Shown one piece after another: positions 206-22,398 of a DNA stretch of 64,000 nucleotides. Numbering within the stretch: position 1 is the stretch's first letter; each line of letters begins with the position of its first letter. The notes under the pieces were generated by a model. The model did no database searches and was not told where the DNA came from. It saw nothing but the letters and a program-made list of their open reading frames with translations. Source of the DNA: a virus (Duplodnaviria > Heunggongvirae > Uroviricota > Caudoviricetes); the IMG/VR virus record IMGVR_UViG_3300027777_000022; one strand, given 5' to 3'. The position numbers were made by a program, and so were the translations under genes.

Positions 206-234
206 ATTATAGCACTAGGCTGGAATCCGGTCAA
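206..234 (-). promoter_or_regulatory. sigma70-like promoter TTGACC-N17-TATAAT
   Basis: Minus strand: -35 TTGACC (plus 229-234), 17-nt spacer, -10 TATAAT (plus 206-211). Confidence 0.55.
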
Positions 235-349
235 CCAAAATCTCTGCAGAAATCAGCTTTCCACCGTATGCTTGCACGTAAGTTTCGGCTACTGCACGGA
301 TAAAAAACGTAAGAACATGACCTTTTGCTGTGATAACTGTGTACTGCAT
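215..349 (-). CDS. small hypothetical protein (44 aa; internal start of ORF 215..418)
   Basis: The upstream promoter -10 falls inside ORF 215..418, so the first Met is unlikely to be the start. Met at 349 (MQYTVITAKG...) is preceded by AAGGA 8 nt upstream. Confidence 0.25.
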   Translation of the reverse strand: MQYTVITAKGHVLTFFIRAVAETYVQAYGGKLISAEILVDRIPA

Positions 350-374
350 GTGGTGTTCCTTGTTGCTTATGTGA

Positions 375-403
375 CTATTATAGCAGTTTGAGAAATAGCG
401 GTC
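375..403 (-). promoter_or_regulatory. sigma70-like promoter TTGACC-N17-TATAAT
   Basis: Minus strand: -35 TTGACC (plus 398-403), 17-nt spacer, -10 TATAAT (plus 375-380). Confidence 0.55.
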
Positions 404-457
404 AACCTGAAATACCACACAAAAAGTGTGGTATTTTCACAACAAAAATTGTTTAAA

Positions 458-626
458 TTACAGGAGTTCTGTCAGAAGATTTCTGACGTGGAGCAGCTTG
501 ACGACTGATGAGATCAGCTTGGATCATGAGTCTGCGTATCTCACCGCGATATTGCGGATCTACGATAATTGCTAGTTGACGTTTGATGTTTTTGGGCATG
601 CGGTAGTTTGCGTTGGGTTTGATCAT
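458..626 (-). CDS. small basic hypothetical protein (55 aa)
   Basis: ORF below the 60-aa cutoff of the track: MIKPNANYRMPKNIKRQLAIIVDPQYRGEIRR... Its ATG overlaps the stop of the upstream 572-aa gene (ATGA). Lys/Arg rich. Confidence 0.3.
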
Positions 627-2341
627 TTGGTTCCTGCTGTGGGTTTTTTTGCTGCTATAGCTCTGTCTAATATTTGATCTATTTTCTTTTGCATATCTGG
701 GGGTAGTGCGTGATATGTATCCTGGTCGGGTACCAGCTTGTTAATTTCGTCGACCAAGCGGTTAAATTCAGCCTGGTCTGCTGCGTCCATGGTTTTTGGC
801 GCTGTCAAATCTTTCCATGCTTCATAACCCTGATATCCACCATACCCAAGAGCACCATATCCGGCAACAGTAGCAGTTGGTTTTACAAAAGTTTTCACTC
901 CCCATTTTGCAACCGGTTTGATCACATGTTGTACAGCCGCAGCGCCCAGCCCTTCGCTAATTATGTCACGATCACGTGCCATTTGTTCGCTTAGTGTTCT
1001 GGGTTCACGACTTTCAAAATTACTTTTCTTTAGTAATTTATCAAGTTTGTCTACTGTGTCTTTGAGGGCAGGCGGCGGCACTTTGTTTGCAGTAGCAGGT
1101 GTAGAAGCCTGTACAGGAGCAGAAGCTGGTGCAGTTGGTGTTGCAGTTGGTGTATCATATCCTGTATCCACAGCTAGATCGTGCAAATCTTTAAAGGCAA
1201 TTGCTACTCGATTTTGTATGTCTGGGGGCAAGGTATTTGCAATCTTGGGATCTTTCATAAAACTCATAACCACTGCAAGATTCTGTTTGACCACAGCTTG
1301 ATCTGCATCATTCATACCTTCAAGATTATCAGAATCTTTGTATGCATCATACAGCATGCTACCTATATCCCAAATAGTATATGCTGTGGCTGCAAGGCCT
1401 ACCAGTGGAGAAAGTGGGCCTGACGCCGCTGTAATTCCTGCTTTGGCCGCTGTTCGGGCCCCTAATCCAGGCAACTTAGAAACAATTTTTTGTCCGATCC
1501 TGGCTGCCCACCCTGATGGCTTCAATTCTACGGCCTTTGCAAGTTCTACTGGAGCACCGCTAGGCTTGTTGAATCTATCGTATATGGAAGAAGGTTGCGC
1601 TGGCTTGGTTGATAAGGCACGACTAGAATCTAGATTTGCTTGTGCAGCTTTTTGTAAACGTATGCGTTTTTGTTCGGGGGATTCATTGGGATTTGCTACT
1701 GCTGGTGCTGCCACATCTGGAGGAATGCTCTGCGCAATGCGATCCTGGTATTCTTTTGCGCTCAACCGAGGGTCAGCTTCGTAGATCTGGCTTTCGGAAA
1801 CTTTGGTATTGCCTTTATACTTCTTGATGATAGTTTCGATAGCACTCAGCGCAGAGATCAACTTGCTGGTATCCACAGCTGGGGTTGAAGCTTGTGCAGC
1901 AGATGCACCGCTGAGATCAGCATATTTGGCAGAGATGGCAGGGTACTTGATCATTGCAGCCTGGGTCAACGGACCTATATCGCCATCTATGCCGTCTTGA
2001 TTGGCACCAGTTCTTCCTAAGGCAGCACCTGCTGCCGACAACTCGCGTTGTAATTGTTTGATGCGTGAAGTATCACCATTACCACCACTTTGAGCAACAG
2101 GTGCAGGTTGAATGTCGTTACCAGCTACAAATTGATGTTGTAACTGCCGATGTTGACTTTGTGGTGTGCCACACACTGCACAGCGTGGTTCACTCCCGCC
2201 GGTCATTTGTCGATTTAGGTTGGCAATGGCATCATCATTACTGAATGTCCCAGAACTTGGTAATGCCACAGTGGTATTGGGTGGTACTAGATCTGCCTCA
2301 TTCAAGAGGTCAAGGTACCGGCGAAATTGATTAGTGCTCAT
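623..2341 (-). CDS. hypothetical large protein (572 aa), Ala/Pro/Thr/Gln-rich low-complexity segments; possible structural/internal protein
   Basis: Long uninterrupted minus ORF; plus-strand ORFs inside it are antisense artefacts. No catalytic motif recognised. Confidence 0.55.
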   Translation of the reverse strand: MSTNQFRRYLDLLNEADLVPPNTTVALPSSGTFSNDDAIANLNRQMTGGSEPRCAVCGTPQSQHRQLQHQFVAGNDIQPAPVAQSGGNGDTSRIKQLQRELSAAGAALGRTGANQDGIDGDIGPLTQAAMIKYPAISAKYADLSGASAAQASTPAVDTSKLISALSAIETIIKKYKGNTKVSESQIYEADPRLSAKEYQDRIAQSIPPDVAAPAVANPNESPEQKRIRLQKAAQANLDSSRALSTKPAQPSSIYDRFNKPSGAPVELAKAVELKPSGWAARIGQKIVSKLPGLGARTAAKAGITAASGPLSPLVGLAATAYTIWDIGSMLYDAYKDSDNLEGMNDADQAVVKQNLAVVMSFMKDPKIANTLPPDIQNRVAIAFKDLHDLAVDTGYDTPTATPTAPASAPVQASTPATANKVPPPALKDTVDKLDKLLKKSNFESREPRTLSEQMARDRDIISEGLGAAAVQHVIKPVAKWGVKTFVKPTATVAGYGALGYGGYQGYEAWKDLTAPKTMDAADQAEFNRLVDEINKLVPDQDTYHALPPDMQKKIDQILDRAIAAKKPTAGTK

Positions 2342-2375
2342 GTAGATATTTATCTTTTTTCATGAGCACCAGATT

Positions 2376-2609
2376 TCAGTATTTCCTGTGATGGCTTTTG
2401 CTCACAATATCTTGCGGTTTGTACAGCCAACTGCGATCCACGTGACCCTGCTCAATTTCGCGCAGGGCAGTGACTGCATGACTGGATACTTTGGTCACTT
2501 TGGGTCGGTCTCCACGTGCTAGTTCTCGCGCTCGACGTGCTGCGATCAGTACCAATTCGTAACGATTGCCGATCATTTCTGCTGCAAGTTGACTGGTAAT
2601 TCGTGCCAT
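2376..2609 (-). CDS. rpoZ: DNA-directed RNA polymerase omega subunit homolog
   Basis: [31 protein letters not shown]...ALREIEQG aligns closely by eye with E. coli RpoZ ([30 protein letters not shown]...ALREIEEG). GGAG sits 6 nt upstream of Met at 2609. Confidence 0.7.
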
Positions 2610-2667
2610 ATAGTTCTCCAATGTTGATGATTTATACAGTATACAACATCGTATTCACAAAGTCAAG

Positions 2668-2910
2668 TTAAAACTCTTTCAATTTGGCAATATCTCGGTG
2701 CTTGACTATGATGATGTTGCGGATCATGCCTTCATGTTTGATCGGAAGATCCAGGTGAATTGAGATTCTAGGCCCGGTGTTGTCAATCACAGTATCGTTG
2801 CCCACAGTACCAACAAATGGGATCTGGTTCCAGCGTCCAAACACACGATCACCAATCCAGTACTTGGGTTGATATCCAATGCGTTCAAAGTATTCAGTTT
2901 GTTTGCCCAT
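2668..2910 (-). CDS. hypothetical protein (80 aa)
   Basis: ORF immediately downstream of promoter 2914-2942; the predicted transcription start lies at or near the ATG, so the transcript may be leaderless. Confidence 0.35.
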   Translation of the reverse strand: MGKQTEYFERIGYQPKYWIGDRVFGRWNQIPFVGTVGNDTVIDNTGPRISIHLDLPIKHEGMIRNIIIVKHRDIAKLKEF

Positions 2911-2913
2911 GCT

Positions 2914-2942
2914 AGTATATAGTGATCAAAAATAACAGTCAA
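2914..2942 (-). promoter_or_regulatory. sigma70-like promoter TTGACT-N17-TATACT
   Basis: Minus strand: -35 TTGACT (plus 2937-2942), 17-nt spacer, -10 TATACT (plus 2914-2919). Confidence 0.45.
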
Positions 2943-2945
2943 AAG

Positions 2946-2975
2946 AAAGCCCGCCAAAGCGGGCTTCTGTTATTT
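2946..2975. terminator. bidirectional rho-independent terminator
   Basis: GCCCGC-caaa-GCGGGC stem with T-runs on both strands (plus ...cttctgttatttt; minus ...ttttctttt). Confidence 0.6.
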
Positions 2976-3350
2976 TCTGTTACGAGGTATAACTACCCTA
3001 AGCTGAGTTTAGGCAGCTAAGGCAAAAAGTTCGTCATTTGCATTTACGTTTTTTGTGTCTCCAACTGTGCTCCGTCTTTCTATGCTATGTGCATAGCGAC
3101 CTAAGTTACCACAATCCTAACGGCTTCTACATTGCCGGACAGTCCATTTCCGTACTCTTGACTCAATCGATCCTGTGTCATCCCCATCAGAAACAGTCTT
3201 GTATATGAATGCACTATGGACTTATAACATATGACCCAAACTGCTTATGGTGGAGATGTCGGGCACTGCCCCCGAGTCTTGAATCCTTTTCTGTCTACTT
3301 CATACCATCATACGTTACATTGTAACAGAGTATTTATAATCTGTCAACAA

Positions 3351-3962
3351 TCAAGATGTCAACATTTCATTGATATACGCATAGTGAGGTATGCGCTCAA
3401 TCACCGCAACCATTTCCAAACATCCGGTGCTGTGTGTAAATGCCGATAGTGAATAATCAAACCCAGCATCATTGTCGTACATTTCTCGCAAGCGCCATTG
3501 TCCAAATGGCAGTGCTCTTTCAATTTCCAACAACAAGGTGCTGGGCATGTAAAACTTCAAATGCTCGCCGCTGTATCTGCTGGGCATGATCATTTTCTTT
3601 TCGTACAATTGCTGATGAGGTACTACCACAACTAAAAATCCACCCACTCGCAGCACACGAAACCAGTCGGCCAACGCTGCTGCTGGATTGGGCAAGTGTT
3701 CTAGGCAATGACTGGAATACACAGTGTCTTGACTGGCATCTGGAAAAGGCAAATGTACACCATCATATCCTGGATAATGTTGATCAATACCAATGGCATT
3801 GTCGGTGATGGGCAATGCACCGTTGCCGCCTGCATATCCAATTTCAATAGTGTTATCACCGCTGAAATAGCGTTGCATGAAACCTGATTCAATCAGAGAA
3901 CGATAGCTTTTACTGGTTTCGGACCCCACGTGTCGATTAGGATCAAATGTTTTTGTTTGCAT
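3351..3962 (-). CDS. class I SAM-dependent methyltransferase
   Basis: Methyltransf_11-like region: CLEHLPNPAAALADWFRVLRVGGFLVVVVP. Confidence 0.65.
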   Translation of the reverse strand: MQTKTFDPNRHVGSETSKSYRSLIESGFMQRYFSGDNTIEIGYAGGNGALPITDNAIGIDQHYPGYDGVHLPFPDASQDTVYSSHCLEHLPNPAAALADWFRVLRVGGFLVVVVPHQQLYEKKMIMPSRYSGEHLKFYMPSTLLLEIERALPFGQWRLREMYDNDAGFDYSLSAFTHSTGCLEMVAVIERIPHYAYINEMLTS

Positions 3963-3964
3963 AG

Positions 3965-5377
3965 TTAGAGAACAGTTTTTAATTTTTTAATCACATCATC
4001 CACTGAGAATCTGTTTGTGCATTCGTCGTCGCCGCGCACACATTCATATCTGGTAACAGGTGCTGGTTGATTCTCCACACATCCATAACATTCAATGTCA
4101 CTGGCGATACCAATGAATGGAGCATTACGATTTCGTGGGGCTCGGTATTGAGATTTTACACTGGTAAACAATCCAATAATAGGAGTGTTAGTAGTTGCTG
4201 CTATGTGCATGGGTCCGCCGTCGACACCAATAAAGGCTCTTGCCCGCGATATAAGTGCAGCGGTCTGATGCAAACTTAAATGTCTAGTTAGATCATACAG
4301 TAGACCATCTATAGTACCAAACGTGTGATCACCCTTGCTGCCAATTTGCACAACTGCATGACCAGTCTGACTGAAAATTTCGTTCATGAGATCAATATGA
4401 AAAATTCTTGGTAAGTTGCGACTGGTCCAGGGGTGATGCCTTTGATGTACAACCACAAACTTCTCTGGCAATCCAACTTGTGCAAGGAACGCATGATGCT
4501 CTGGTTGCACAAACAATTCTGTATGTAGATCAGTTGTGGCAGGATCAATTCCGGCTCTGGCAGCATAGGCATCTATGGTATGCATGCGAGGATTGAGCTC
4601 ATATGCCATTTCCAGATCAACCACTAGATCATACCGACTTCTATCAAATTGATCAGCTGGCGCAGCATATCTTATGTGATGGCTACCACTAAACACGTAA
4701 AAATCGTTTGTGGCCACGTCAACGGCTGCTTGTGGATGACGTTGCTTTAATGCACGTACAATGCCAGTGGCCATGATCACATCACCTAGTGCAGCTGGTC
4801 TAATAACCAGTATGTTTTTAATTTCAACACGTCGGTCAACAATGATATAACCTTCTTCGTTTAGTACGAGGCTAACATTTGCATCTGGAAATATCTCATG
4901 CACAAATTGATACCCGCCGGGCACTTGTAACCATTCAGTATTGCCATGTTCGAATTCAGCTATGGTATAGATCCTGGCATCATCACAGATGATGATATCG
5001 TTTGCATTGGGCCGATATTTCTTTATTAGCCGTAGCTCTTGTTCCAACGGCACTGCATCTGGTGCAGATACATCGTATGGTTTACCACGATAATCGCTGC
5101 CCGGAAAGTGTGCATCAAGAAAAAACAAAACAGTTTGATCTGATGGCAAGTCGTCTTTAAGCCACTGTTCTAGTGCTGCGGTAGACAGCCCATGTGCAAT
5201 AGTCGCAGATGGAAATCTGCTTCTTGCGCTGGACACACAGTCCAGATCCATATCTACCGAATAGCATTTTTTAAAATGCGGAATGGCCTTTGACAAAGTA
5301 CCGCCGACTCCTGTACCGGTTTCGACATAAACATCACACTTGTAATTGGCAAGATCGAAGTCTCTTAGGGTTCCCAT
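3965..5377 (-). CDS. bifunctional protein: N-terminal SAM methyltransferase-like domain fused to GT9 heptosyltransferase-like domain
   Basis: N-terminus has DVYVETGTGVGGTL (methyltransferase motif I-like). C-terminus has ILVIRPAALGDVIMATG ... IGVDGGPMHIAATTNTPIIGLF, typical of the GT9 RfaF/WaaC family. Confidence 0.65.
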   Translation of the reverse strand: MGTLRDFDLANYKCDVYVETGTGVGGTLSKAIPHFKKCYSVDMDLDCVSSARSRFPSATIAHGLSTAALEQWLKDDLPSDQTVLFFLDAHFPGSDYRGKPYDVSAPDAVPLEQELRLIKKYRPNANDIIICDDARIYTIAEFEHGNTEWLQVPGGYQFVHEIFPDANVSLVLNEEGYIIVDRRVEIKNILVIRPAALGDVIMATGIVRALKQRHPQAAVDVATNDFYVFSGSHHIRYAAPADQFDRSRYDLVVDLEMAYELNPRMHTIDAYAARAGIDPATTDLHTELFVQPEHHAFLAQVGLPEKFVVVHQRHHPWTSRNLPRIFHIDLMNEIFSQTGHAVVQIGSKGDHTFGTIDGLLYDLTRHLSLHQTAALISRARAFIGVDGGPMHIAATTNTPIIGLFTSVKSQYRAPRNRNAPFIGIASDIECYGCVENQPAPVTRYECVRGDDECTNRFSVDDVIKKLKTVL

Positions 5378-5520
5378 TGTTTATTTTTTCTTTCGTACTA
5401 CACGTTTGGCCATGGCTTTCATGGTCTTGGGTTTTGGTGGCTTTTTGCCATTGAGGATTTGACTTGCTCTACGTGGACTTGGCATTGCTATCTCCTTGAT
5501 TGTGTTACTTAGTGATGCAC

Positions 5521-5595
5521 TGGTGCTCCCAACAAGAATTGAACTTGTAGCTCGTCCTTACCAAGGACGTGTATTGCCATTATACTATAGGAGCG
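5521..5595 (-). tRNA. tRNA-Thr(GGT)
   Basis: Hand-folded cloverleaf: acceptor GCTCCTA, anticodon arm CGTCC-TTGGTAA-GGACG, T-arm GTTCAATTC, CCA encoded. Confidence 0.6.
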
Positions 5596-5670
5596 TGGTC
5601 TCTGCGACCAGAATTGAACTGATATTTCGTCTTTAGGAGAGACTGGTTCTATCCATTGAACTACGCAGAG
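5596..5670 (-). tRNA. tRNA-Arg(CCT)
   Basis: Acceptor CTCTGCG/CGCAGAG, anticodon loop CTCCTAA, T-loop TTCAATT, CCA encoded. Confidence 0.55.
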
Positions 5671-5712
5671 ATTTAAAAATCTGATGCACGGTGAAATAAA
5701 TATACATACATT

Positions 5713-6519
5713 ATGTCTAAACTAACTAACTTTCCCACTGTGAACTATATCACTCTATACGAGAACGTGGCCCGTATGGAGTTTATGAATGAGCAGTTGG
5801 CTAGATATGGTATCCGTTATGTGCCATGCTTAAATCATAGATACACCACATTCCAGCATACGATCAATATCACGTGGCCCAACATTATCAGAGAGGACAC
5901 TGAAATATTTCGAGGATTTAGCCATCCGGGAACAGTGATCAGTTATCTAACTGCAATGCGAAATTGGTATGACACCACCAGCGAAGAATATGCAATATTC
6001 TGTGATGACGACATGAGTTTTGAAAGCATTGATCATTGGAGTTTTACCTGGCAAGAATTCTTAGATATGTTACCCAATGATTGGGAATGTGTGCAACTTG
6101 TGCGTATCAACAATTGGATACCAGGCCTGATCAACAATGGATTCAAAGTTGAAGTACCGTCACTGAGTATGAGAGTAAAGGAATGGGATGACTTTGGTGG
6201 TGCTGGACTGTTCAAACGTGCCTACGTCAAAAAAATACTAGATCGACATTGGATAAGTCCTTTGGATTTTAATTTTGAAATACCAAGCCGATACGACCCG
6301 GGATTCTTTTACTATGCCACAATTGAAAATGTGTTGTTTAGTCATCTTGCTGATTCAGCAGTATACAATGTTCCGCTGTTGATGGAAAAACCCTTCCCCT
6401 CAACCTTAGACGTTCCGCAAGCAGTATATTCACACTTGAAATCTTATGAGTATTATTCCGCACTATGGAAGCTGTATGGGCAAGATCTTCCACTGTCGGT
6501 GTTCATGAATCTCAGTTGA
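5713..6519 (+). CDS. glycosyltransferase family 25-like (LPS glycosyltransferase-like)
   Basis: RGFSHPGTVISYLTAMRNW...EYAIFCDDDMSF...DWECVQL fits the GT25 pattern (S-H...EDD...dwD). One of only three plus-strand genes in the window. Confidence 0.4.
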   Translation: MSKLTNFPTVNYITLYENVARMEFMNEQLARYGIRYVPCLNHRYTTFQHTINITWPNIIREDTEIFRGFSHPGTVISYLTAMRNWYDTTSEEYAIFCDDDMSFESIDHWSFTWQEFLDMLPNDWECVQLVRINNWIPGLINNGFKVEVPSLSMRVKEWDDFGGAGLFKRAYVKKILDRHWISPLDFNFEIPSRYDPGFFYYATIENVLFSHLADSAVYNVPLLMEKPFPSTLDVPQAVYSHLKSYEYYSALWKLYGQDLPLSVFMNLS

Positions 6520-6594
6520 TGGTGGGCCCTGCAAGAATCGAACTTGCATCTTGAGTTTCGAAGACTCGGATTCTATCCATTGAACTAAGAGCCC
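6520..6594 (-). tRNA. tRNA-Arg(TCG)
   Basis: Acceptor GGGCTCT/AGGGCCC, anticodon loop CTTCGAA, T-arm GCAAG-TTCGATT-CTTGC, CCA encoded. Confidence 0.55.
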
Positions 6595-6611
6595 TGGCTA
6601 AAATTTTTACT

Positions 6612-8063
6612 TCAATCTAAAGTTTTATCTGCAATGAGTTCAAACAATCTTTTTTTATATTCTGAAAAAAACAAAATTGAATGTACATGAGGTCTATGTG
6701 TATGCCATAGAGATGTAGTTGATATCTGTTTATAATTCATATGAAACATGGTAGCAAGTTTTTGAGCTTTATCAGAATTAAGTTCATTATTTTCCCACGA
6801 TAATGCAAAAGGATTTTCATTGGTTACTGCTCGATATCCAAATTTTTTATAATCTTTAGTAATTTTACTTTCAAATACCAAGCCATTTTCTTTTTTACCA
6901 ATGATCAATGGACGAACTACAACTGTGTCTAGTTTTATTTCATGCGAAATTAACGCATCTAATGTACGTCTAATAGATTCTTCAGATTCGTAAGGAGTAC
7001 CAATGATAAAACTTCCATGTAAGTGAATGTCTGGATAAGTTTCTTTAATGTGCGATATCATTGCTATTTGATTTTCTCTATTGTATCCTTTACCTATAGC
7101 CAATCCAGACTTTCTGTCAAGTGTTTCAATTCCAAACATCATTTTTCTTATTCCGATGTCATATAACATCTGCATTGTGTTAGGGTGCGTACATATTAAA
7201 TCTAATCTGGCATAACACCAAAATTCTGGTTTGAATGGCAATCCTATTATAACTTCTCGTATTTGTATTAATTTATCAACCGAATCATTGAAAGTATCAT
7301 CTGTTATATAATACTGAGTTATACCATAGTTATTAAAATTATATAATAACTCGTCTGCTATTATTTCTGATTCTTTAATAAAATCTAGCTTTTTCTTTCC
7401 GTTCATTGGGTAAGAACAAAATGCACAACTAAATATGCACCCTCTACCAATTTCAATAGGCAATATGGTGTTATTAACTACGTCTTCGGGTAACCATGTC
7501 ATTGAGTCGGTGGTAAATTTATATCCCTCTGCCAGTACATTATTAATAATAATTTTGTTATTGATAATATTTCTATAACTATTTTTTAATGGAGCATTGT
7601 CTTTTACATGATCAACTAAATTTACTATATTTGCTTCTGCATATCCTAATACCAAAAAATCAGCATATTTGCATTTTAAATCTGCACAAATCATTGGACC
7701 ACCAACAGTTATTTTTACCTTATGGTTTAGTCGTTTGATGTGGTAAAAAATTTGATCATCAAATTCAGCTCCTTGGGGGAACAAATTAAAATTTTCCGCA
7801 AGCAAGTCAACTTTTTTAGTGTTTAAAATATTATAGAATGTTGTACTGAACCCAATCAAGTAAGTGTTATCACCTACAGTTGTGTCTAGTAATTTACAAA
7901 TTTCATCAACTGTAAATTTTGAAGTATGGTGTACTACTAAACATGAGTATCCACTTTTCCGAAGGGTATTTGCTAATTTATATGCACCAATTCCGGGCGA
8001 TAGTACGTTATCATCTTGGATTGTAATTACATCAGTGAAAAGAATAACATTATATTTTGACAT
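6612..8063 (-). CDS. B12-binding domain / radical SAM protein
   Basis: CIFSCAFCSY (CxxxCxxC) preceded by an N-terminal Rossmann-like B12-binding-type segment (MSKYNVILFTD...). Confidence 0.65.
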   Translation of the reverse strand: MSKYNVILFTDVITIQDDNVLSPGIGAYKLANTLRKSGYSCLVVHHTSKFTVDEICKLLDTTVGDNTYLIGFSTTFYNILNTKKVDLLAENFNLFPQGAEFDDQIFYHIKRLNHKVKITVGGPMICADLKCKYADFLVLGYAEANIVNLVDHVKDNAPLKNSYRNIINNKIIINNVLAEGYKFTTDSMTWLPEDVVNNTILPIEIGRGCIFSCAFCSYPMNGKKKLDFIKESEIIADELLYNFNNYGITQYYITDDTFNDSVDKLIQIREVIIGLPFKPEFWCYARLDLICTHPNTMQMLYDIGIRKMMFGIETLDRKSGLAIGKGYNRENQIAMISHIKETYPDIHLHGSFIIGTPYESEESIRRTLDALISHEIKLDTVVVRPLIIGKKENGLVFESKITKDYKKFGYRAVTNENPFALSWENNELNSDKAQKLATMFHMNYKQISTTSLWHTHRPHVHSILFFSEYKKRLFELIADKTLD

Positions 8064-8260
8064 GTTTTATTTATCAAAGAAAAACCCTACCGTATGTAAC
8101 AACTTCTCAGAGTGGCAGTTACACAGAGGGCAGGGCCGTGTTATCCGATGGAGTGAAGTTTATACCCGGCCTTTCCTCCAGCTCAAATAAAACATAAGTG
8201 TCCTTTGTTATTCTTATGTTTATTTATATTAGTTCGACGCTTGTGCGCGAACTCAAGGGC

Positions 8261-8348
8261 GGAGAGCAGAGGAGTCGAACCCCATCCCATTTCTGAGAAC
8301 CTGGTTTTCAAGGCCAGTCGCAGGACCATCCCCGCTGCATTACTCTCC
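8261..8348 (-). tRNA. class II tRNA-Ser(TGA)-like, 3' CCA not encoded
   Basis: Acceptor GGAGAGT/GCTCTCC fully paired, D-stem GCAG/CTGC, anticodon loop CTTGAAA, long variable arm, T-loop TTCGACT. 3' tail is GCC, not NCCA, unlike the other tRNAs here. Confidence 0.45.
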
Positions 8349-8492
8349 AAATTGGTGGGATTCGTTTTGAGGCCGGTCCCGGTGAGTAGATCACTACTGC
8401 CTGTTACATCGCATTATTGTACTATTGCTTGCCCAAGGATTTACCGCGGTACCTTGTGACTCATACTGGCGAATGTAACTTCGCCGCTGCTC

Positions 8493-8567
8493 TGGAGCGG
8501 GCAACGAGAATCGAACTCGTGACTTAACTTTGGCAAAGTTATGTGTTACCACTAGCACTATGCCCGC
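8493..8567 (-). tRNA. tRNA-Gly(GCC)
   Basis: Acceptor GCGGGCA/TGCCCGC, anticodon arm TAACT-TTGCCAA-AGTTA, T-loop TTCGATT, CCA encoded. Confidence 0.65.
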
Positions 8568-8602
8568 TTATGTTGTTATTATATATTGAATCTTGAATCA
8601 AG

Positions 8603-9001
8603 TCAAGAGTTTTGTTCTTGGCTGGCACAGTTTGGGCACAGCATTTTCAAATTGTTAGGTGCATTGTTGTCTGGATTGCCATCCATGTGATACATCACAA
8701 ACTTCAACGGCTTGTTCATGTAGCTGGTTATGTCACAGCACTCACATTGTTGTTCACGTACCTGGGCAGCGTCAGACGCTTTTTGCTGTCGGTATTCTTC
8801 TACCACGTCATTGACCTTGACTGCCACTGGTACTGTTTCCATAACCTTGGCCAACTGCTGTACTTCAAACGGAACCAATGAGTTTCTTGCTGCCTCTGAT
8901 GCCTGGCACCGGGTACTGCAAAACCCAGGTGTACGCCGCTCTTGAGACCAAAGATACCGATTTCTACAATGTTCACAGTAATAGGGTTGATGCACAGTCA
9001 T
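8603..9001 (-). CDS. HNH endonuclease
   Basis: C-terminal HMDGNPDNNAPNNLKMLCPNC (H-N-H with flanking Cys pairs); N-terminal CxxC zinc ribbon. Confidence 0.7.
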   Translation of the reverse strand: MTVHQPYYCEHCRNRYLWSQERRTPGFCSTRCQASEAARNSLVPFEVQQLAKVMETVPVAVKVNDVVEEYRQQKASDAAQVREQQCECCDITSYMNKPLKFVMYHMDGNPDNNAPNNLKMLCPNCASQEQNS

Positions 9002-9049
9002 ATAGTATTTATTCTAAATATGGATGCTGCGGCCCAATAAATATTTGCC

Positions 9050-9334
9050 ATGCTAAAACAACGTATACCATTGAATCTTCGACGCAGGATCGTCGAACGC
9101 GACGGCTTGCATTGTGTGTACTGTGATGAGGATCTGTCAGATTCTGAGATACATATGGATCATGTGATTCCAGAATCAAAAGGTGGAGAAACCACTTACC
9201 ACAATCTACAAGTTACTTGTCGCAAGTGCAATCTAGCAAAAGGTGTGCTATCTGAACACGAGTTCTCTAAGAGATTGAGAACTCGTGCAATGAACATCCT
9301 TTACAGACTTGGGCCTACAGCAGACCTTCCGTAG
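9050..9334 (+). CDS. HNH endonuclease
   Basis: CVYCDEDL...HMDHVIPESKGGETTYHNLQVTCRKCN is a canonical HNH motif. Confidence 0.75.
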   Translation: MLKQRIPLNLRRRIVERDGLHCVYCDEDLSDSEIHMDHVIPESKGGETTYHNLQVTCRKCNLAKGVLSEHEFSKRLRTRAMNILYRLGPTADLP

Positions 9335-9899
9335 TCAACACAGTGACCACATCGGCACTGAGTTCAATCTCAGTACGAACGTTGATTTCCAACAATTCGT
9401 CTTGTAACTTTTGCTTGGCCTTCTTGCCCATGCTCACAGCAGTACGGAAACCTGCAATATCTTCTTGAGTGAAGATAGAAGTATCCACAGTAGCGTCGTG
9501 TCCGTAGTACAAACTACGAGAGTCTTCTTTGCGATTACGCAGTTTGTCCATCTTGCCTGCCACAACCTCTGCACTATCGCGCACAGTCTTGCCTGACAAT
9601 TCGGCAAGGTACTGGATCTTCTTGTCCATCAAGGCCACATCGGCCAGCTTGACATCCACACCTTGTGCCGCATTGGCCTGGCTCACTGCCTTGCGGATAT
9701 CGTACAGGCTGTTGAGCAATCCGCGATGACGTTCTTGGTTGGCAACAAAGGCTTCACGTGCCTTGGCAATTTCGTCTTCGGCTGTTTGGAATTCGTTGAC
9801 TTTGATTTCAGTGTCAAATTTGATACTTTTGATTGCTTCCTGAACACTCAGTTGCAATGCGTTGGCTTTACGTAGATTGATTTTCATAATTTCTTTCAT
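9315..9899 (-). CDS. hypothetical protein (194 aa), predicted coiled-coil rich
   Basis: Long ORF with no recognised motif. Confidence 0.5.
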   Translation of the reverse strand: MKEIMKINLRKANALQLSVQEAIKSIKFDTEIKVNEFQTAEDEIAKAREAFVANQERHRGLLNSLYDIRKAVSQANAAQGVDVKLADVALMDKKIQYLAELSGKTVRDSAEVVAGKMDKLRNRKEDSRSLYYGHDATVDTSIFTQEDIAGFRTAVSMGKKAKQKLQDELLEINVRTEIELSADVVTVLTTEGLL

Positions 9900-10203
9900 T
9901 AAACAATAAGGGTGGCAAGACCCAAGTCAAGTCACAGACTAAGCAAGGTGCAATACGCAACATGCAAAATACAAACCACAGTGGCCTGCGTATGTCCGGT
10001 TATCAAAGTGCAGATGTCTATAATAGGTCCGGTTCACACAAGCACGATCCAGGTTTCCCCAGAGGCCATTTTAAGTGTCAGCTGTTAAGGCTGGTCGGAA
10101 TAATCCAACAGTTGTCTGTTCTAATCTACTCAAATCTTGCCTGCCAGCTTGCGCTGACAAAACTAATTATATGCGAAACAGCGACGGAAATCAACTGTTT
10201 TGG

Positions 10204-10686
10204 TTAAGCTGCTCGGCGATTGCTCAACACCCAATCCAGTCTGTCAGCAGCATAGCTGGCAGCAAAGGCTCGAGGTTTGACCATTGGAATCACATTGCAA
10301 GTGCCTTTGATGTAACCAATTGCTTGGTTAACCACCACGGAGCTCTTGTGCATCTGATCAGGGTTGATGTCCAAGTGTACTTCCACCAGTCGGTCTTCTA
10401 GTACATCACTCATCTTTTGAAACAGTTCTGATACCTTGTACACTTCGTTCATGAGTCTCATAGCAGGCTTGTCGCTGCGTTGATCCCAATCACGTTCACG
10501 TTGTACTTCACCAAAGATTTTGCAGCCATGGCAGCTATCAATGTGTACAACCACTGCCAGCGCATAGTCTGCGTACCATACGCCATTGACTTTTACTCGT
10601 TCGCTGTCGCAGCCTAGATACACCGAAGTTTCTGGACTTTGAGCAGTGATAAATTCTTTGACCTGAGCCATGTCCATTTTTTTCAT
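10204..10686 (-). CDS. hypothetical protein (160 aa)
   Basis: Long ORF; possible RNase H-like fold (YLGCDS ... VVVHIDS) but the call is not secure. Confidence 0.45.
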   Translation of the reverse strand: MKKMDMAQVKEFITAQSPETSVYLGCDSERVKVNGVWYADYALAVVVHIDSCHGCKIFGEVQRERDWDQRSDKPAMRLMNEVYKVSELFQKMSDVLEDRLVEVHLDINPDQMHKSSVVVNQAIGYIKGTCNVIPMVKPRAFAASYAADRLDWVLSNRRAA

Positions 10687-10743
10687 AATTTACTTTCTTT
10701 TATTTAATTAGTGTAGATAATTCTGAGGTCGATAAATAGTACA

Positions 10744-11877
10744 ATGTCTAAAACTATTATCTTAAATTCAACAAATTCTTTTTTAGAGTGGGCGGCTGAA
10801 TCAGCTGCCATCAAGAAAGTGAATATAGTTATTTTTTCGATAGATCATTGGCAAGATAACATTACAGTATGGGATGATGATCAACTTGACCAATCTCCAA
10901 TTAGAATATTTCAAAAATTTGTCCAGGAGCATGCTGACTGTAAATTTCTGTTATTTTCTACAATAATCAACTTTGAATCACAGTTTGATCATTTGCACAA
11001 TGTTAGAGTTGTGTATTGGGGTCCTGATTTTATTAGAGATGCTCGAAATACACATTTATTATACCGTCCGGCATCCACTAAAAATTTTAATGAATACTCT
11101 CATCATTGGATTGTACTTTGTAGGATGATGAGAGAACATCGTGTACTATTGATGTTATTGTTGTTAGGAAAAGATCTAGAAAAAACAGGACTGATTAAAG
11201 CTAGTGTTCCTAAATCACTTCATTCAAACAATTCAATTGATGACTATTTAAGAATGATCAACTGTCAACATTTATGTGACGAAATCATACATTCGCAGCG
11301 AAGTCATATCTATCAAAAAGGGTTTGATAAAATTATTCAAAATGCACCAAACAATTTTCTAGGGTTTAGATCAAATCATACGGAAGATGACTTTTCATTT
11401 AAAGACTCTGATAACGGACAAAATTTTAATTGTCTAAGAACTGATTATCAAAACAGTCTAATAGAAATCATTGTTGAAACTATATTTTTTCATAACAATG
11501 GGTTGGTAAGTGAAAAATTTGCCAACTGCGTTTATGGTTTTAATTTTTTTATTGCATTGGCAAGTCCGGGATACGTCGAACATCTGCGACAGTTAGGATT
11601 TGATGTATTTGATGATGTGATTGATCACTCATACGATCAAATCGTAAATCCTTACGATCGACTCGAAGCCTCCATTGAATCTAATAGAAAAATTTTACAA
11701 GATAAACAATTTGCATTTGACCAATGGACCAACTGTAAATTCCGGATGCAATCTAATTTAGAACAGTTGATAAAACTTATGAAAAGTTCTTATATCTTCA
11801 GATTACCAGGTAATCTTAAAACATGGGCCGACGCTAACATAACTATTGAAAATTTTGACACAATACTACTGCCTTGA
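10744..11877 (+). CDS. hypothetical protein (377 aa), AT-rich gene
   Basis: Long plus-strand ORF with lower GC than its neighbours; no motif recognised. Confidence 0.5.
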   Translation: MSKTIILNSTNSFLEWAAESAAIKKVNIVIFSIDHWQDNITVWDDDQLDQSPIRIFQKFVQEHADCKFLLFSTIINFESQFDHLHNVRVVYWGPDFIRDARNTHLLYRPASTKNFNEYSHHWIVLCRMMREHRVLLMLLLLGKDLEKTGLIKASVPKSLHSNNSIDDYLRMINCQHLCDEIIHSQRSHIYQKGFDKIIQNAPNNFLGFRSNHTEDDFSFKDSDNGQNFNCLRTDYQNSLIEIIVETIFFHNNGLVSEKFANCVYGFNFFIALASPGYVEHLRQLGFDVFDDVIDHSYDQIVNPYDRLEASIESNRKILQDKQFAFDQWTNCKFRMQSNLEQLIKLMKSSYIFRLPGNLKTWADANITIENFDTILLP

Positions 11878-11882
11878 CTAAT

Positions 11883-11956
11883 TGGCGTACCCACTAGGAC
11901 TCGAACCTAGACTGACGGTTTTGGAGACCGCGATGCTGCCATTACACTATGGATAC
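11883..11956 (-). tRNA. tRNA-Trp(CCA)
   Basis: Acceptor GTATCCA/TGGGTAC, anticodon arm GCGGT-CTCCAAA-ACCGT, T-loop TTCGAGT, CCA encoded. Confidence 0.6.
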
Positions 11957-12007
11957 ATAAACGTGGTGGAAACGTTGAGATTTGAACTTACGAGAGTTAT
12001 CTTCTAT

Positions 12008-12637
12008 CTAATATTTTTCGGCAATCAATTCAGCAATTTTGTCTGAATGAACTCCTATACTAATTGCAATTCGAGAATCAGTTATATTTTGTACACTGTG
12101 TATGATGTTGGTTTTTATCATAGCCCATGAATTAATTGGTATCTCAATCTGGGACATCTCTACCAGTGCAGTTGAATCCAAAGCCACTGTATGGGGAAGT
12201 CTAACAAGATCTTCTCCTGGCTGTTGCCACCAATGAGTAGTGACTGGACTTTTGGGATTCCCACTTTTTATAAGATATAGCATTGTATATTTGCCTCTTG
12301 CGCTACCATCGGTATGCGGCAACAATGCAGATACAAAACCAGTCACGCTGGTGCAATATTGAACTCCGGTAGTAATACTAGAGTTGTTTAATTCGTTGAT
12401 ATTTTTGTATAACCACTCATCAAGTGTAGGATTAATTGGACCGGTGACTGGAGTTCTATAATATAATGCCCCGTCTTGTGTTGACCCATCACTTACAATA
12501 ACCTTGTGTTGTGTTAGTTCTTGTTTATTGGCAACTGTAGTTGAGTTATCAACATTGTTTGAGTCAACATACACTATTTGATCAAGCAATTCAGACGGGA
12601 TTACAGGAAGCTGATTTAAAAATTTAAAATATTGCAT
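12008..12637 (-). CDS. hypothetical protein; possible 2OG-Fe(II) oxygenase-like
   Basis: LLPHTDGS (HxD) and a later LPHTVAL His might form an HxD...H facial triad; weak. Confidence 0.4.
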   Translation of the reverse strand: MQYFKFLNQLPVIPSELLDQIVYVDSNNVDNSTTVANKQELTQHKVIVSDGSTQDGALYYRTPVTGPINPTLDEWLYKNINELNNSSITTGVQYCTSVTGFVSALLPHTDGSARGKYTMLYLIKSGNPKSPVTTHWWQQPGEDLVRLPHTVALDSTALVEMSQIEIPINSWAMIKTNIIHSVQNITDSRIAISIGVHSDKIAELIAEKY

Positions 12638-12658
12638 ACAAAATGAACCTAATGTTAT

Positions 12659-13489
12659 TTAACAAATATTGTTTTTTAAATATTGAGAATATAGCAAATC
12701 AGCAAAATACGCATTCCATTCATGGCCAAAGTGTATTTTATCTCGGGCTCTGGGAAATCTAAATTCGTGTCCTAGAGTATTATCAGTAGGGCCCAATGGA
12801 ACAACGTCACGTTCGTAAGCGTAAACATCAAAAGACTCCAGATCTTCATTTTTACATAAATTGATTTCTTGTAGTGGTATTTTTCTATTTTTGCAAATTT
12901 CTTGTAACATAATGCGATTTTTATCATAATGATACTTTAAATAGCTATTGTCATTGAATATGTCAGCTGCCTGTTCCAAACGTTTACTGCTGTTGGTATG
13001 ACCATCATAGGTTTCTAAGAATATTTTATACGGCAGATATCGACGTTTGATAGAAATTTCTCTTGAAGAAATAAACGGCCATTGCACAAACACTGCTCGA
13101 GGACATAAAACATCAATGGTTTTGGCAATTGCTCTAACCACATAGTCACTGCTAGCAGCAGCAAGACCTAAATTGTATAACTTGGTATTGGGAAATTTCT
13201 CTCTCAACATGTGTGGCCAAGTGTGTTCAACAGGGCATCCGATACCAATGGTGCAACTGTCTCCGATGGCTATTATGGAATCTCGTCCATCGTTAACAAA
13301 CTCGTCTGATCTGAACCCGTGCGTGTTCCACCGGTAAGTAATGTCAGTGTCAGAGTAGATGCTGTTGGGATTTATTCCAGGACAATCTCTACGATACCAA
13401 TAACTGGTATTGGTATTTTCTGGCCCACCGGGCACCCCTACAACACTAAAAATTCCTTGGTCCCAATTGTTAAAATCTGAAGTTAGCAT
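12659..13489 (-). CDS. SGNH/GDSL-type hydrolase
   Basis: IIAIGDSCTIGIG (GDS block I motif). Confidence 0.6.
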   Translation of the reverse strand: MLTSDFNNWDQGIFSVVGVPGGPENTNTSYWYRRDCPGINPNSIYSDTDITYRWNTHGFRSDEFVNDGRDSIIAIGDSCTIGIGCPVEHTWPHMLREKFPNTKLYNLGLAAASSDYVVRAIAKTIDVLCPRAVFVQWPFISSREISIKRRYLPYKIFLETYDGHTNSSKRLEQAADIFNDNSYLKYHYDKNRIMLQEICKNRKIPLQEINLCKNEDLESFDVYAYERDVVPLGPTDNTLGHEFRFPRARDKIHFGHEWNAYFADLLYSQYLKNNIC

Positions 13490-14166
13490 AGATTGTGTAA
13501 ATCCAGTTTGTGCCTAAGTCTAATGCTAAGGCTAGTTCTTGGCAGTTTACCCAAATTAATTGCTCGGTGTGGAATAGTCACATTCAGATATATTGGTTGC
13601 GTTAGACTTGCTCGTGCCACTTCAACTGCCGAAGAATCGTCATATGCCATACTACTATTTGACCAATTCATCACAATATTTTTCATTGATTCCGATGGAG
13701 AATCAACAAAATCTGCGGTTATAGATTTGTCACCTAATTTTGTTGTTGAATACCAAACTGTGTAGGAATCATCATAATTTAACAAAGGAACGTTAATGGC
13801 TTCGCCGGTTACATCTAACATTAAATCAAATGGAACATCACCGTCACGGTCAGTGTCTACGTGTATGGGAAACATTTTAAGACCATTGCTGGAAACAACA
13901 ATCCAGGCCACCGCAAAAATATCACGAAATTGTATATTTTTACTAGATAACCAATCCGCAAATATGGGACATGCATTTTTAAATTCTTTAAGTTTGCGTA
14001 AATATTTTGTGCCAACTTCACTTTTGTTGTTGATCAACCCAGTTGATGTAGTATCCAAATCAATCATTGACACGTATAATGGGCAAGTGGTTCTTAGATA
14101 GGTATCAATTTCTGCAGACATCTGCTGCAGATTTGGAGCGGTAAGTGTTTTGTAATATGGTAACAT
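13483..14166 (-). CDS. hypothetical protein (227 aa)
   Basis: Long ORF, no motif recognised. Confidence 0.5.
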   Translation of the reverse strand: MLPYYKTLTAPNLQQMSAEIDTYLRTTCPLYVSMIDLDTTSTGLINNKSEVGTKYLRKLKEFKNACPIFADWLSSKNIQFRDIFAVAWIVVSSNGLKMFPIHVDTDRDGDVPFDLMLDVTGEAINVPLLNYDDSYTVWYSTTKLGDKSITADFVDSPSESMKNIVMNWSNSSMAYDDSSAVEVARASLTQPIYLNVTIPHRAINLGKLPRTSLSIRLRHKLDLHNLC

Positions 14167-14233
14167 GATAGGTTAAATTATACTCTGTAATATAACCTAT
14201 TTAGTTTGGCAATATGACAAATTTAAATAATTA

Positions 14234-14325
14234 TGGTACCAGCGGAGAGATTCGAACTCTCTCAAGAACGCTAATCTGGCGCTAAAAGGCTTATAAGACC
14301 TCTCTGACTACCCAGTCTCGCTGGC
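14234..14325 (-). tRNA. class II (long variable arm) tRNA, anticodon loop CUUAUAA (UAU?); identity uncertain
   Basis: Acceptor GCCAGCG/CGCTGGT, T-arm GAGAG-TTCGAAT-CTCTC, 22-nt variable region, CCA encoded. Confidence 0.45.
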
Positions 14326-14331
14326 ATTGTT

Positions 14332-14406
14332 TGGTCCGGCGTAACAGAATCGAACTGCTATCTAGGGAGTAGAAATCCCCTGTATTATCCATTATACTAA
14401 CGCCAG
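14332..14406 (-). tRNA. tRNA-Arg(TCT)
   Basis: Anticodon arm GGGGA-TTTCTAC-TCCCT, T-loop TTCGATT, CCA encoded. Confidence 0.55.
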
Positions 14407-14447
14407 ATAAATTTACTTTGGTATTCTCTGTAAATTTACTTTGGTAT

Positions 14448-14534
14448 TGGTGCGACTGGCCGGGATCGAACCGGCACGCCCTCACAGGCGTCAGATTTTA
14501 AGTCTGGTGCGGCTACCAATTACGCCACAGTCGC
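14448..14534 (-). tRNA. tRNA-Leu(TAA), class II
   Basis: Acceptor GCGACTG/CAGTCGC, anticodon loop CTTAAAA, long variable arm, T-loop TTCGATC, CCA encoded. Confidence 0.6.
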
Positions 14535-14538
14535 TTGT

Positions 14539-14612
14539 TGGTCTCGGTAGGAAGAATCGAACTTCCGCTTCATGCTCCCAAAGCACGGGTGATACCATTT
14601 CACTATACCGAG
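14539..14612 (-). tRNA. tRNA-Pro(TGG)
   Basis: Acceptor CTCGGTA/TACCGAG, anticodon loop TTTGGGA, CCA encoded. Confidence 0.55.
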
Positions 14613-14619
14613 TATTAAT

Positions 14620-14697
14620 TGGAGCAACGGGAGGGATTTGAACCCCCGGTTTTACGGATTTGCAATCCGTTGCATTGGGCCGCTCTGCCACCGTTGC
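14620..14697 (-). tRNA. tRNA-Cys(GCA)
   Basis: Acceptor GCAACGG/CCGTTGC, anticodon arm ACGGA-TTGCAAA-TCCGT, T-loop TTCAAAT, CCA encoded. Confidence 0.65.
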
Positions 14698-14701
14698 ATA
14701 T

Positions 14702-14777
14702 TGGTACCTGGTGACAGACTCGAACTGTCATCGCTCTCCGTGTAAAGGAGACGTATAACCTCTCTACGCAACCAGGC
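14702..14777 (-). tRNA. tRNA-Val(TAC)
   Basis: Anticodon arm TCTCC-TTTACAC-GGAGA, T-loop TTCGAGT, CCA encoded. Confidence 0.6.
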
Positions 14778-14816
14778 AGTTTTTTTGTTTTGAATTGTTA
14801 AAATCTATATATCCAC

Positions 14817-14895
14817 ATACACTTGCAGGAATTGAACCTGCCTACCCCGGATTGACCAGAGCTGTAATCCGCTACATCTGCCTGGCCCGGGCATT
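14817..14895 (-). ncRNA. tRNA-like element with canonical T-arm (GCAGG-TTCAATT-CCTGC) but no foldable acceptor stem and no CCA; possible degenerate or interrupted tRNA
   Basis: T-arm is perfect, but I could not pair an acceptor stem by hand; an internal GGATT...AATCC helix carries a 12-nt loop. Confidence 0.25.
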
Positions 14896-14986
14896 TGTGC
14901 ATGTGGATATAAAGACTTGGACTGTTTCCAGTCTTTATATCATGTAAATTTTTAATGAGCGTATGTTAATTTCTTAACATGCTGCA

Positions 14987-15015
14987 ATTATAGCATCACC
15001 CGTGATACTTGTCAA
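14987..15015 (-). promoter_or_regulatory. sigma70-like promoter TTGACA-N17-TATAAT inside tRNA array
   Basis: Minus strand: -35 TTGACA (plus 15010-15015), 17-nt spacer, -10 TATAAT (plus 14987-14992). Confidence 0.5.
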
Positions 15016-15016
15016 C

Positions 15017-15090
15017 TGGTAGACTCTACAAGAATTGAACTTGTGTCTGTGCAATGTCAATGCACCGTTCTACCATTGAACTAAGAGTCT
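15017..15090 (-). tRNA. tRNA-Val(GAC)
   Basis: Acceptor AGACTCT/AGAGTCT, anticodon arm GTGCA-TTGACAT-TGCAC, T-loop TTCAATT, CCA encoded. Confidence 0.5.
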
Positions 15091-15094
15091 GAGT

Positions 15095-15169
15095 TGGTGG
15101 AGGATAGCAGATTCGAACTGCTGATGCTGCCATGCCATGGCAGTATGTTTCCAACTATATCAATCCCCC
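15095..15169 (-). tRNA. tRNA-Ala(GGC) with G3-U70
   Basis: Acceptor GGGGGAT/ATCCTCC gives the G3-U70 wobble that is the Ala identity element; anticodon arm CTGCC-ATGGCAT-GGCAG; CCA encoded. Confidence 0.55.
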
Positions 15170-15173
15170 AAAA

Positions 15174-15249
15174 TGGTGCCCTAGGTGGGACTCGAACCCA
15201 CAGAACCTGGTTTCTAAGACCAGTACGTATGCCATTCCGTCACCAGGGC
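15174..15249 (-). tRNA. tRNA with anticodon UAG (Leu-decoding) but short variable arm
   Basis: Anticodon arm CTGGT-CTTAGAA-ACCAG, T-arm GTGGG-TTCGAGT-CCCAC, only about 5-nt variable loop (class I geometry), CCA encoded. Confidence 0.45.
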
Positions 15250-15250
15250 A

Positions 15251-15325
15251 TGGTGGTCATGGTTGGTATCGATCCAACCTCCTCGCCTTATGAGGGCGGT
15301 GCGCATCCATCTACGCCACATGACC
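15251..15325 (-). tRNA. tRNA-Met(CAT) (initiator, elongator or Ile-lysidine type not resolved)
   Basis: Acceptor GGTCATG/CATGACC, anticodon loop CTCATAA, T-loop ATCGATA, CCA encoded. Confidence 0.55.
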
Positions 15326-16157: not shown

Positions 16158-16161
16158 TATA

Positions 16162-16375: not shown

Positions 16376-16376
16376 C

Positions 16377-18115: not shown

Positions 18116-18116
18116 T

Positions 18117-22397: not shown

Positions 22398-22398
22398 G

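Follow-up and report, generated by a model that had tools for sequence, protein, structure and literature searches.

Several phage proteins bind and remodel the RNA polymerase of the host. These include AsiA, RpbA and Alc of T4, Gp2 of T7 and P7 of Xp10, as well as the phage sigma factors. To our knowledge, phages redirect the host polymerase by sigma factors, inhibitors or covalent modification and are not known to supply a homologue of one of its core subunits. No described example of core-subunit replacement by a phage was found in the literature, and full-text searches, including papers on freshwater and jumbo phages, found no mention of a phage-encoded omega.

The omega subunit (RpoZ) is dispensable in E. 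coli, with mild phenotypes. It latches beta-prime at both its N- and its C-terminal part and aids assembly of the enzyme (PMC7700224). Polymerase that lacks omega has lower processivity and is more prone to termination (PMC13192885). At ppGpp site 1 the phosphates of ppGpp contact omega residues 2-5 (PMC10191844, PMC7676912). This site acts in elongation, ppGpp-dependent pausing, backtracking and repair, and is dispensable for the stringent response proper, as it does not govern the response at promoters (PMC10191844). The function of omega and of site 1 has long been debated (PMC13192885, PMC10191844).

Three described systems are close to the one presented here. The activator GafA of RcGTA acts through direct contact with omega (PMC9638019), and thus a phage-derived element uses omega as a control point of the polymerase; there, however, the omega of the host is targeted, whereas in the present case omega is supplied by the virus. 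Dominant-lethal omega mutants ("subunit poisoning") show that the C-terminal conserved region modulates the enzyme and that a variant enters it despite the native copy (PMC7700224). Those omegas are laboratory point mutants of E. coli, whereas the gene described below is a natural viral one. Giant eukaryotic viruses encode RPB6/omega proteins of the same superfamily, which serve virus-encoded polymerases and match the phage protein weakly. Like T4 AsiA, RpbA and Alc, T7 Gp2 and Xp10 P7, the phage omega is expected to be an early product that joins the host transcription enzyme. Proteins of the AsiA, Gp2 and P7 type are phage inventions or sigma homologues, whereas the phage omega is a core-subunit homologue and would act by subunit replacement.

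The phage omega gene occupies 2376..2609 on the minus strand of the window, by which we mean the whole 64-kb stretch of DNA analysed. The reading frame runs from an ATG (2609..2607) to a TGA stop (2378..2376) and encodes 77 amino acids. A program-made list of open reading frames placed the start at a TTG at 2621, giving 81 residues. The ATG is taken as the true start because the TTG overlaps the GGAG ribosome-binding site and because all relatives begin MAR. This Shine-Dalgarno sequence (2616..2619, minus strand) lies 6 nt 5' of the ATG, and GGAG or GGA is found at the equivalent position in 12 of 13 aligned relatives. A promoter scan identified a sigma70-type promoter, TTGACT-17-TATACT, immediately 5' of the gene (2638..2666, minus strand), with a predicted transcript start near 2631 and hence a leader of about 22 nt. 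Both hexamers are unchanged in 12 of the 13 relatives while the spacer diverges. In some relatives this promoter is preceded by a GC-rich stem and then a T run (GGTGGGCTTTTT), which resemble a terminator.

The immediate neighbours of the gene in the window encode 80-aa and 572-aa proteins without known function, a methyltransferase and a glycosyltransferase. The cellular gene order gmk-rpoZ-spoT, which is typical of rpoZ in Proteobacteria without strictly defining it, is absent. Among 11 distinct copies of the gene the differences are mainly synonymous (median dN/dS 0.086 over 45 pairs, with dS at about 1 and near saturation). Purifying selection of this strength (dN/dS about 0.09) excludes an untranslated reading frame, which the preliminary description had named as a way in which its proposal could fail. 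Judged from its sequence, the gene is genuine and expressed.

That description had aligned the protein by eye with E. coli omega and proposed that it is an RpoZ homologue. The proposal is borne out at the level of profiles, motifs and predicted fold. The protein scores 53.5 bits against PF01192 (RNA_pol_Rpb6; E = 2.4e-14, curated gathering cut-off 26) and 48.8 bits against TIGR00690, the NCBIfam rpoZ equivalog (cut-off 23.6), where residues 1-57 are matched and the 60-position model is covered in full. The similarity thus survives profile-based scoring, the other point on which the proposal had been open to refutation. All 24 phmmer matches among PDB sequences are omega chains. The best of these is E. 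coli omega (E about 4e-11), aligned from query residues 1-60 to omega residues 1-62 with two one-residue gaps, and every motif quoted from the by-eye alignment (MAR-T-Q, IGNR[FY][DE]LVL, AARRAR and ALREIE-G) is found in this alignment. Both helix motifs that contact beta-prime, GNR[FY]xLVxxAxxRARxL and ALxEIxxG, are present and match those of E. coli omega position by position in the alignment. The residues invariant across the phage-type omegas and E. coli (A9, G14, N15, L19-L21, A23, R26, R28, G33, A48, E51-E53, G55 and L62) sit in the two family-defining helices.

A single-chain AlphaFold2 model, built from 82 family sequences, has a mean pLDDT of 81 and helices at 6-13, 16-31, 44-53 and 59-63. 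The best 50 Foldseek matches of this model in the PDB are all omega chains, with E. coli omega at the top (TM 0.71, rmsd 1.8 A, 63 columns). In a Foldseek search of BFVD the RPB6 proteins of giant viruses gave no close match, being recovered at E of about 1-5, with TM of 0.42-0.53 over 37-49 columns. By profile score, motifs and predicted fold, the 77-aa protein is a true RpoZ/omega homologue. It shares with the bacterial RpoZ of the proteobacterial MAR class the family, the helix motifs, the size, the predicted four-helix fold and the MAR N-terminus. It is unlike bacterial RpoZ in being phage-encoded, in lying outside a gmk-rpoZ-spoT order, in having Ser6 for Val6 and in its tail, which is basic and 13 residues long; cellular RpoZ tails are longer and acidic, or there is none. 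It also groups apart from cellular RpoZ in a distance tree.

The window belongs to a jumbo phage, as seen from its 34 tRNA genes, a T4-type DNA polymerase and 22 co-oriented promoters. Nearly all genes lie on the minus strand and many open reading frames have no family match. The tRNA genes are scattered among the protein genes. They extend from 5521 to 31245, all on the minus strand, cover nearly all amino acids and form clusters interrupted by protein genes. One of the predicted tRNAs, tRNA-Ile(tat), is 92 nt long (14234..14325). The family B DNA polymerase is nearest to those of two jumbo phages, Sinorhizobium phage Phosso (49%) and Agrobacterium phage Atu_ph07 (43%). A protein identical to the phage omega occurs on a 348-kb metagenomic contig. 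Together with the relatives on IMG/VR viral contigs, the tRNAs and the DNA polymerase confirm the phage location that had been assumed for the gene.

Two RNA ligases and an exonuclease are further products of the window, which also carries a 7-deazaguanine pathway. Genes for a QueE-like radical SAM protein, a QueD-like synthase and a GTP cyclohydrolase make up this 7-deazaguanine (queuosine-precursor) set within 46196..53164; methyltransferase and glycosyltransferase genes accompany it, and the combination suggests modified DNA bases. Host-like auxiliary genes encode a TctA tricarboxylate transporter subunit, a rubrerythrin and an SPFH/Band 7 protein (24853..26160, 30020..30535, 31601..32398). 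Related phages (L021, L106) carry TctC, DctP and the outer-membrane porin Porin_4. The auxiliary genes hint at a Gram-negative, possibly Burkholderiales, host. The sole nucleotide match to an isolated phage in the first 12 kb is a stretch at 8258..8351, which has 88.5% identity to a part of Pseudomonas phage PHB09 that carries no annotation. This stretch adjoins a tRNA-Gly gene (8493..8567) and an HNH endonuclease gene (8603..9001).

The pattern TTGAC-N18-TAYAMT occurs at 22 sites in the window, where 0.2 are expected. All are on the minus strand, co-oriented with the genes, and the omega promoter is among them. These near-consensus sigma70 promoters span 206..60128, with most in the first 40 kb, a clustering that marks a predicted large early region. 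Several promoters, e.g. those at 37779, 38940 and 39316, have in common a longer repeated upstream sequence (TTGACC.GAATTG.). The 22 co-oriented consensus promoters argue that the region is an array of early transcription units read by the sigma70-type holoenzyme of the host. A scan of approximately 60 proteins of the window, itself 64 kb of a genome of about 350 kb, yielded neither a polymerase subunit nor a sigma factor.

Phage omegas make up a large family, recovered solely from metagenomes. A single-sequence search of approximately 5.8 billion proteins returned 1041 matches. The best 120 of these include the identical protein; nearly all of the 120 have a length of 77 residues and an identity of 83% or more, and their contigs do not exceed 348 kb. 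A profile search recovered many more relatives with 45-70% identity and lengths of 66-100 residues, on contigs of up to 344 kb. The surroundings of seven different family members are all phage-like, with short unannotated genes, Peptidase_G2, Thy1, RNA-repair genes, TctA and a porin. Three omega sub-types were found on 51 IMG/VR viral loci, on viral contigs of up to 343 kb. One omega cluster defined at 90% identity is present on 86 contigs, and the family is abundant in lake metagenomes. The family signature consists of Ser6 in place of the cellular Val6 (TS[EQ] vs TV[EQ]D), [YW]LxK at positions 61-64 and a short tail of net positive charge. The phage-borne omega is a new variant of a known protein family, and it is common in lake metagenomes.

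The preliminary description had further remarked that rpoZ was not known to it as a standard phage gene, and the survey of described phages agrees with this. No PHROGs family matches the phage omega. A tblastn search of 50,697 phage records with the phage omega and a divergent member gave no match other than bacterial contigs and host-DNA contaminants. The matches rejected as phage omegas comprise Salmonella contigs, the 240-kb contigs of Acinetobacter phage MD-2021a (annotated rpoZ), 1.5-kb fragments and Campylobacter phage A11a/A18a. The matches at E = 1e-3 all have the same identity (46.9% over query residues 1-62) and include two Salmonella contigs annotated as omega; the MD-2021a contigs match more weakly than this group. 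Five records filed as phage with an enterobacterial- or Acinetobacter-type rpoZ (MG065691.1, MG065686.1, OR845831.1, OR851528.1 and CAKLQH020000003.1) look like host DNA or whole bacterial contigs.

Metagenomic copies are auto-annotated as omega in the databases. In UniProt, two auto-annotated proteins of uncultured Caudovirales match structurally (A0A6J5T227, 46% identity), and these are the only close viral structural matches. The sole named organism in the family is the "Haliscomenobacter sp." of RefSeq WP_353479879.1, from genome bin GCA_040403615.1. This bin contains two phage-like contigs, L006 and L026 (183 kb and 23 kb), and each of them encodes a separate phage-type omega. The entry is read as a binning artefact because the two omega-bearing contigs differ and have phage-like content; they were probably mis-binned into a Bacteroidota genome. 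Haliscomenobacter was rejected as the host, given the phage-like contigs and the TTGACA/TATAAT type of the window promoters. We know of no use of such promoters by Bacteroidota.

The relationship of the phage omegas to cellular ones was examined with a neighbour-joining distance tree of 152 representatives, built on 64 columns and without bootstrap. Of the 63 cellular-type sequences in this tree, 60 group in a single clade whose only further members are five other sequences of cellular appearance; the 84 phage-type sequences that remain fall outside this clade. In the genome hit list, which derives from a 7-sequence alignment whose patterns favour gammaproteobacterial omegas and is biased accordingly, no cellular omega exceeds about 58% identity to the phage omega. 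The protein is for this reason regarded as an old phage resident and not a recent pick-up. The best gammaproteobacterial omegas, from Idiomarina and Alteromonas, align over some 60 residues at 52-58% identity and need one or two gaps. A Comamonadaceae omega (locus L040, flanked by gmk and spoT) aligns without gaps over 64 residues, 34 of them identical (53%). It shares with the phage omega the loop length, the xPK[IV] and VTALREI motifs and the C-terminal motif, here an MLRK ending. As candidate donors the two groups score alike, and the matches argue for an origin from a proteobacterial omega of the MAR class. A Burkholderiales-like source and host is plausible, and fits with the TctA, TctC and Porin_4 genes in related phages.

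The features that define the MAR class lie at the N-terminus. Codons M1-A2-R3-I4-T5 (2595..2609, minus strand) align with residues 1-5 of E. coli omega, which lie at ppGpp site 1, and MARIT replaces the MARVT of E. coli, in keeping with the proteobacterial MAR class. Codon R50 (2460..2462, minus strand), in the ALREIE helix, corresponds by alignment to E. coli R52. Crystal structures from 2013 reportedly involve R52 of E. coli omega in ppGpp binding. As MARIT and R50 are kept, site 1 is predicted to be intact with this omega, and as the ppGpp-contacting N-terminus is kept, the protein seems unlike a device that blinds the polymerase to ppGpp.

Not all members of the family have this configuration. 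A MAR N-terminus is present in 97 of the 140 phage-type sequences scored. The R50 column holds R in 78 of these 97, vs 8 of the 43 non-MAR sequences (odds ratio 18, Fisher p = 7e-12, with phylogeny not accounted for). On a rough and noisy tree made from the other columns, the non-MAR tips fall into about 25 groups, most of them without R50. One non-MAR sub-family (P0131, P0132, P0136, P0141 and P0150; loci L108-L141) has an N-terminal extension ending in TAG[IL]TS[EQ] for MAR[IL]TS[EQ], usually has L, M or K in place of R50, and occurs on viral contigs of up to 343 kb. The joint retention of MAR and R50 suggests that the ppGpp contact may be selected in copies like this one and discarded in others.

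The C-terminal region (residues 57-77; 2379..2441, minus strand) contains the [YW]LxK motif and the short basic tail and is phage-specific. It is almost invariant in the close relatives listed. The pN/pS of these 21 residues is 0.12, against 0.17 and 0.11 for the two core helices and a maximum of 0.30 on the surface of the first helix, and the tail is thus as constrained as the core. All close phage-type members (100%) and 82% of the divergent ones have a tail of net positive charge; among cellular-type tails, 59% have a net negative charge. Omegas of Burkholderiales have a similar MLxK ending without any tail, so part of the [YW]LxK motif is ancestral.

A conserved hairpin (2334..2369, minus strand) lies between the omega stop and the next gene, with arms GTGCTCATG and CATGAGCAC and an 18-nt loop. 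Its 3' arm contains the ATG (2341..2339) of the downstream gene, which encodes the 572-aa protein, and no Shine-Dalgarno sequence was found 5' of this ATG. In 11 relatives the hairpin has a free energy of -12 to -22 kcal/mol and compensatory changes in the arms. The loop motif [AG]G[AG]TAAATATCT is conserved, with GATAAATATCT in 10 of the 11. The arrangement resembles a T4 device by which the start codons of early read-through transcripts are masked. The loop was also considered as the site of a T4-type late promoter, which was set aside as speculation, since TATAAATA is not enriched in the window (4 vs 2.5 expected) and the loop motif is unique. The 572-aa protein has no Pfam or PHROG match, and its gene adjoins omega only in the close family; for both reasons it was rejected as the functional partner of omega.

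The preliminary description had also pointed to a SpoT-like HD hydrolase and a MazG in the window and suggested deliberate manipulation of the stringent response. Both genes are present: 28467..28970 encodes an HD_4 protein (SpoT-hydrolase-type), and 40733..41398 encodes a member of the MazG superfamily (PRA-PH). A deliberate module of omega, HD hydrolase and MazG is only circumstantial, however. Small hydrolases of the HD_4 type are found in 246 isolated phage records that have no omega, Salmonella phage SSU5 among them, so the co-occurrence of HD_4 with omega says little and loses force as specific evidence for a module. A link of HD_4 and MazG to omega is possible. The HD_4 gene lies in an RNA-repair/alarmone group (23886..37324) together with two RNA ligase genes (23886..24833 and 36302..37324), a Metallophos phosphoesterase (29032..29652) and an AAA_33 kinase (33786..34250). 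Amid RNA-repair-type genes, it may equally serve tRNA or alarmone counter-defence.

We consider it probable, if well short of certain, that the gene encodes a functional omega that is made early and occupies the omega site on host beta-prime. The host sigma70 polymerase would transcribe the gene early from its own consensus promoter. The product would then take the normal omega site, either by filling enzyme free of omega or by out-competing the resident subunit, and the polymerase that transcribes the phage would thereby carry viral omega. There is a precedent in E. coli, where omega variants expressed from a plasmid are incorporated into the polymerase and are dominant over the chromosomal copy (PMC7700224). 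The phage omega keeps the beta-prime-latching core as well as MAR and R50, and site 1 is predicted to remain intact. Where cellular omegas have a long and usually acidic tail, it has [YW]LxK and the 13-residue basic tail, which is likely to be the phage-specific working part and possibly adds an extra contact. The probable benefit would be a stable, processive, fully omega-loaded polymerase for a genome of about 350 kb in slow-growing freshwater hosts. We infer the binding to host beta-prime, the replacement of host omega and all downstream effects; the role given to the basic tail is conjecture on our part.

Other purposes can be proposed for the same protein. Viral omega may serve mainly to set the response of the host polymerase to ppGpp at site 1, with MAR copies keeping or strengthening the response, non-MAR copies abolishing it, and both acting alongside the HD_4 hydrolase and the MazG-like enzyme. 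The retention of MAR and R50 here, their joint retention or loss in the family (78/97 vs 8/43) and the spread of non-MAR tips, mostly without R50, over 25 groups of the rough tree are what this reading would predict, although the association ignores phylogeny and the tree is noisy. In three divergent relatives (L022, L023 and L107) an HD_4 gene lies at a distance of 2-6 kb from omega, and the window has one as well, but HD_4 genes are common in isolated phages without omega (246 records). Site 1 governs pausing and backtracking during elongation (PMC10191844), which is relevant to long phage transcripts. It also requires residues of host beta-prime, however, and a copy that merely preserves the site alters nothing unless host omega is limiting. 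We regard alarmone tuning as unlikely to be the main purpose. Rather less likely still is an adaptor, in which the basic tail recruits a phage transcription factor or nucleic acid and redirects the polymerase to phage genes. The constraint on the tail, equal to that on the core (pN/pS 0.12), the family-wide [YW]LxK and a positive charge opposite to that of most cellular tails would fit such docking, and the activator of a phage-like element is known to contact omega directly (PMC9638019). The MLxK ending of the tail-less Burkholderiales omegas indicates, however, that the motif is partly ancestral. No partner was identified, and the gene next to omega is conserved only within the close family.

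The dominant-lethal mutants raise the question of whether viral omega is a poison that binds more tightly than the native subunit, impairs initiation on the host genome and aids host shut-off. Mutations of this kind in E. coli omega, e.g. N60D, map to the C-terminal conserved region (PMC7700224), and the phage omega has an Asp, D58, at the position aligned with N60. The mimicry of N60D was dropped, as 10 of the 57 cellular-type omegas have a natural Asp at this column. Gly is the residue there in most members of the phage type. The phage also relies on this same polymerase for at least 22 early promoters, and we hold a poison subunit to be very improbable. Least credible of all is that the protein belongs to a multisubunit polymerase encoded by the phage itself, or that the gene is a passenger without a role in infection. 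The omega homologues of giant eukaryotic viruses do serve polymerases of viral origin, and the window covers only 64 kb of a genome of about 350 kb; but the approximately 60 window proteins scanned include no polymerase genes, and an identity of about 50% to proteobacterial omegas over the beta-prime-binding helices fits a partner in the host enzyme. The dN/dS of 0.09, the conserved private promoter and the deep diversification within phages contradict a passenger gene.

A wider form of the preferred reading, in which viral omega joins the host enzyme, can be stated for the whole family. A widespread clade of uncultivated jumbo phages would install viral omega in the host polymerase. By carrying either the kind that keeps the site-1 contacts (MAR and R50, as here) or the kind in which both have given way to an N-terminal extension and a TAG[IL]TS motif, different phages would set the alarmone sensitivity of elongation, and the basic tail would add a phage-specific function. 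We put this forward tentatively and think it on balance doubtful; if true, it would be the first case known of a virus replacing a core subunit of a bacterial polymerase.

The presence of its own omega copy in an uncultivated giant freshwater phage suggests that part of the host transcription enzyme may be swapped during infection. If the phage omega enters the host enzyme, subunit replacement would join the strategies of phage takeover. The natural variants, in which the ppGpp-contacting N-terminus is either present or absent and the basic tail is new, would then offer probes of the function of omega and of site 1. A practical consequence is that phage omegas are already auto-annotated as bacterial rpoZ and binned into bacterial genomes, as in WP_353479879.1 of "Haliscomenobacter sp.". 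Given its abundance, the phage omega family may matter for the infection of slow-growing freshwater bacteria by large phages.
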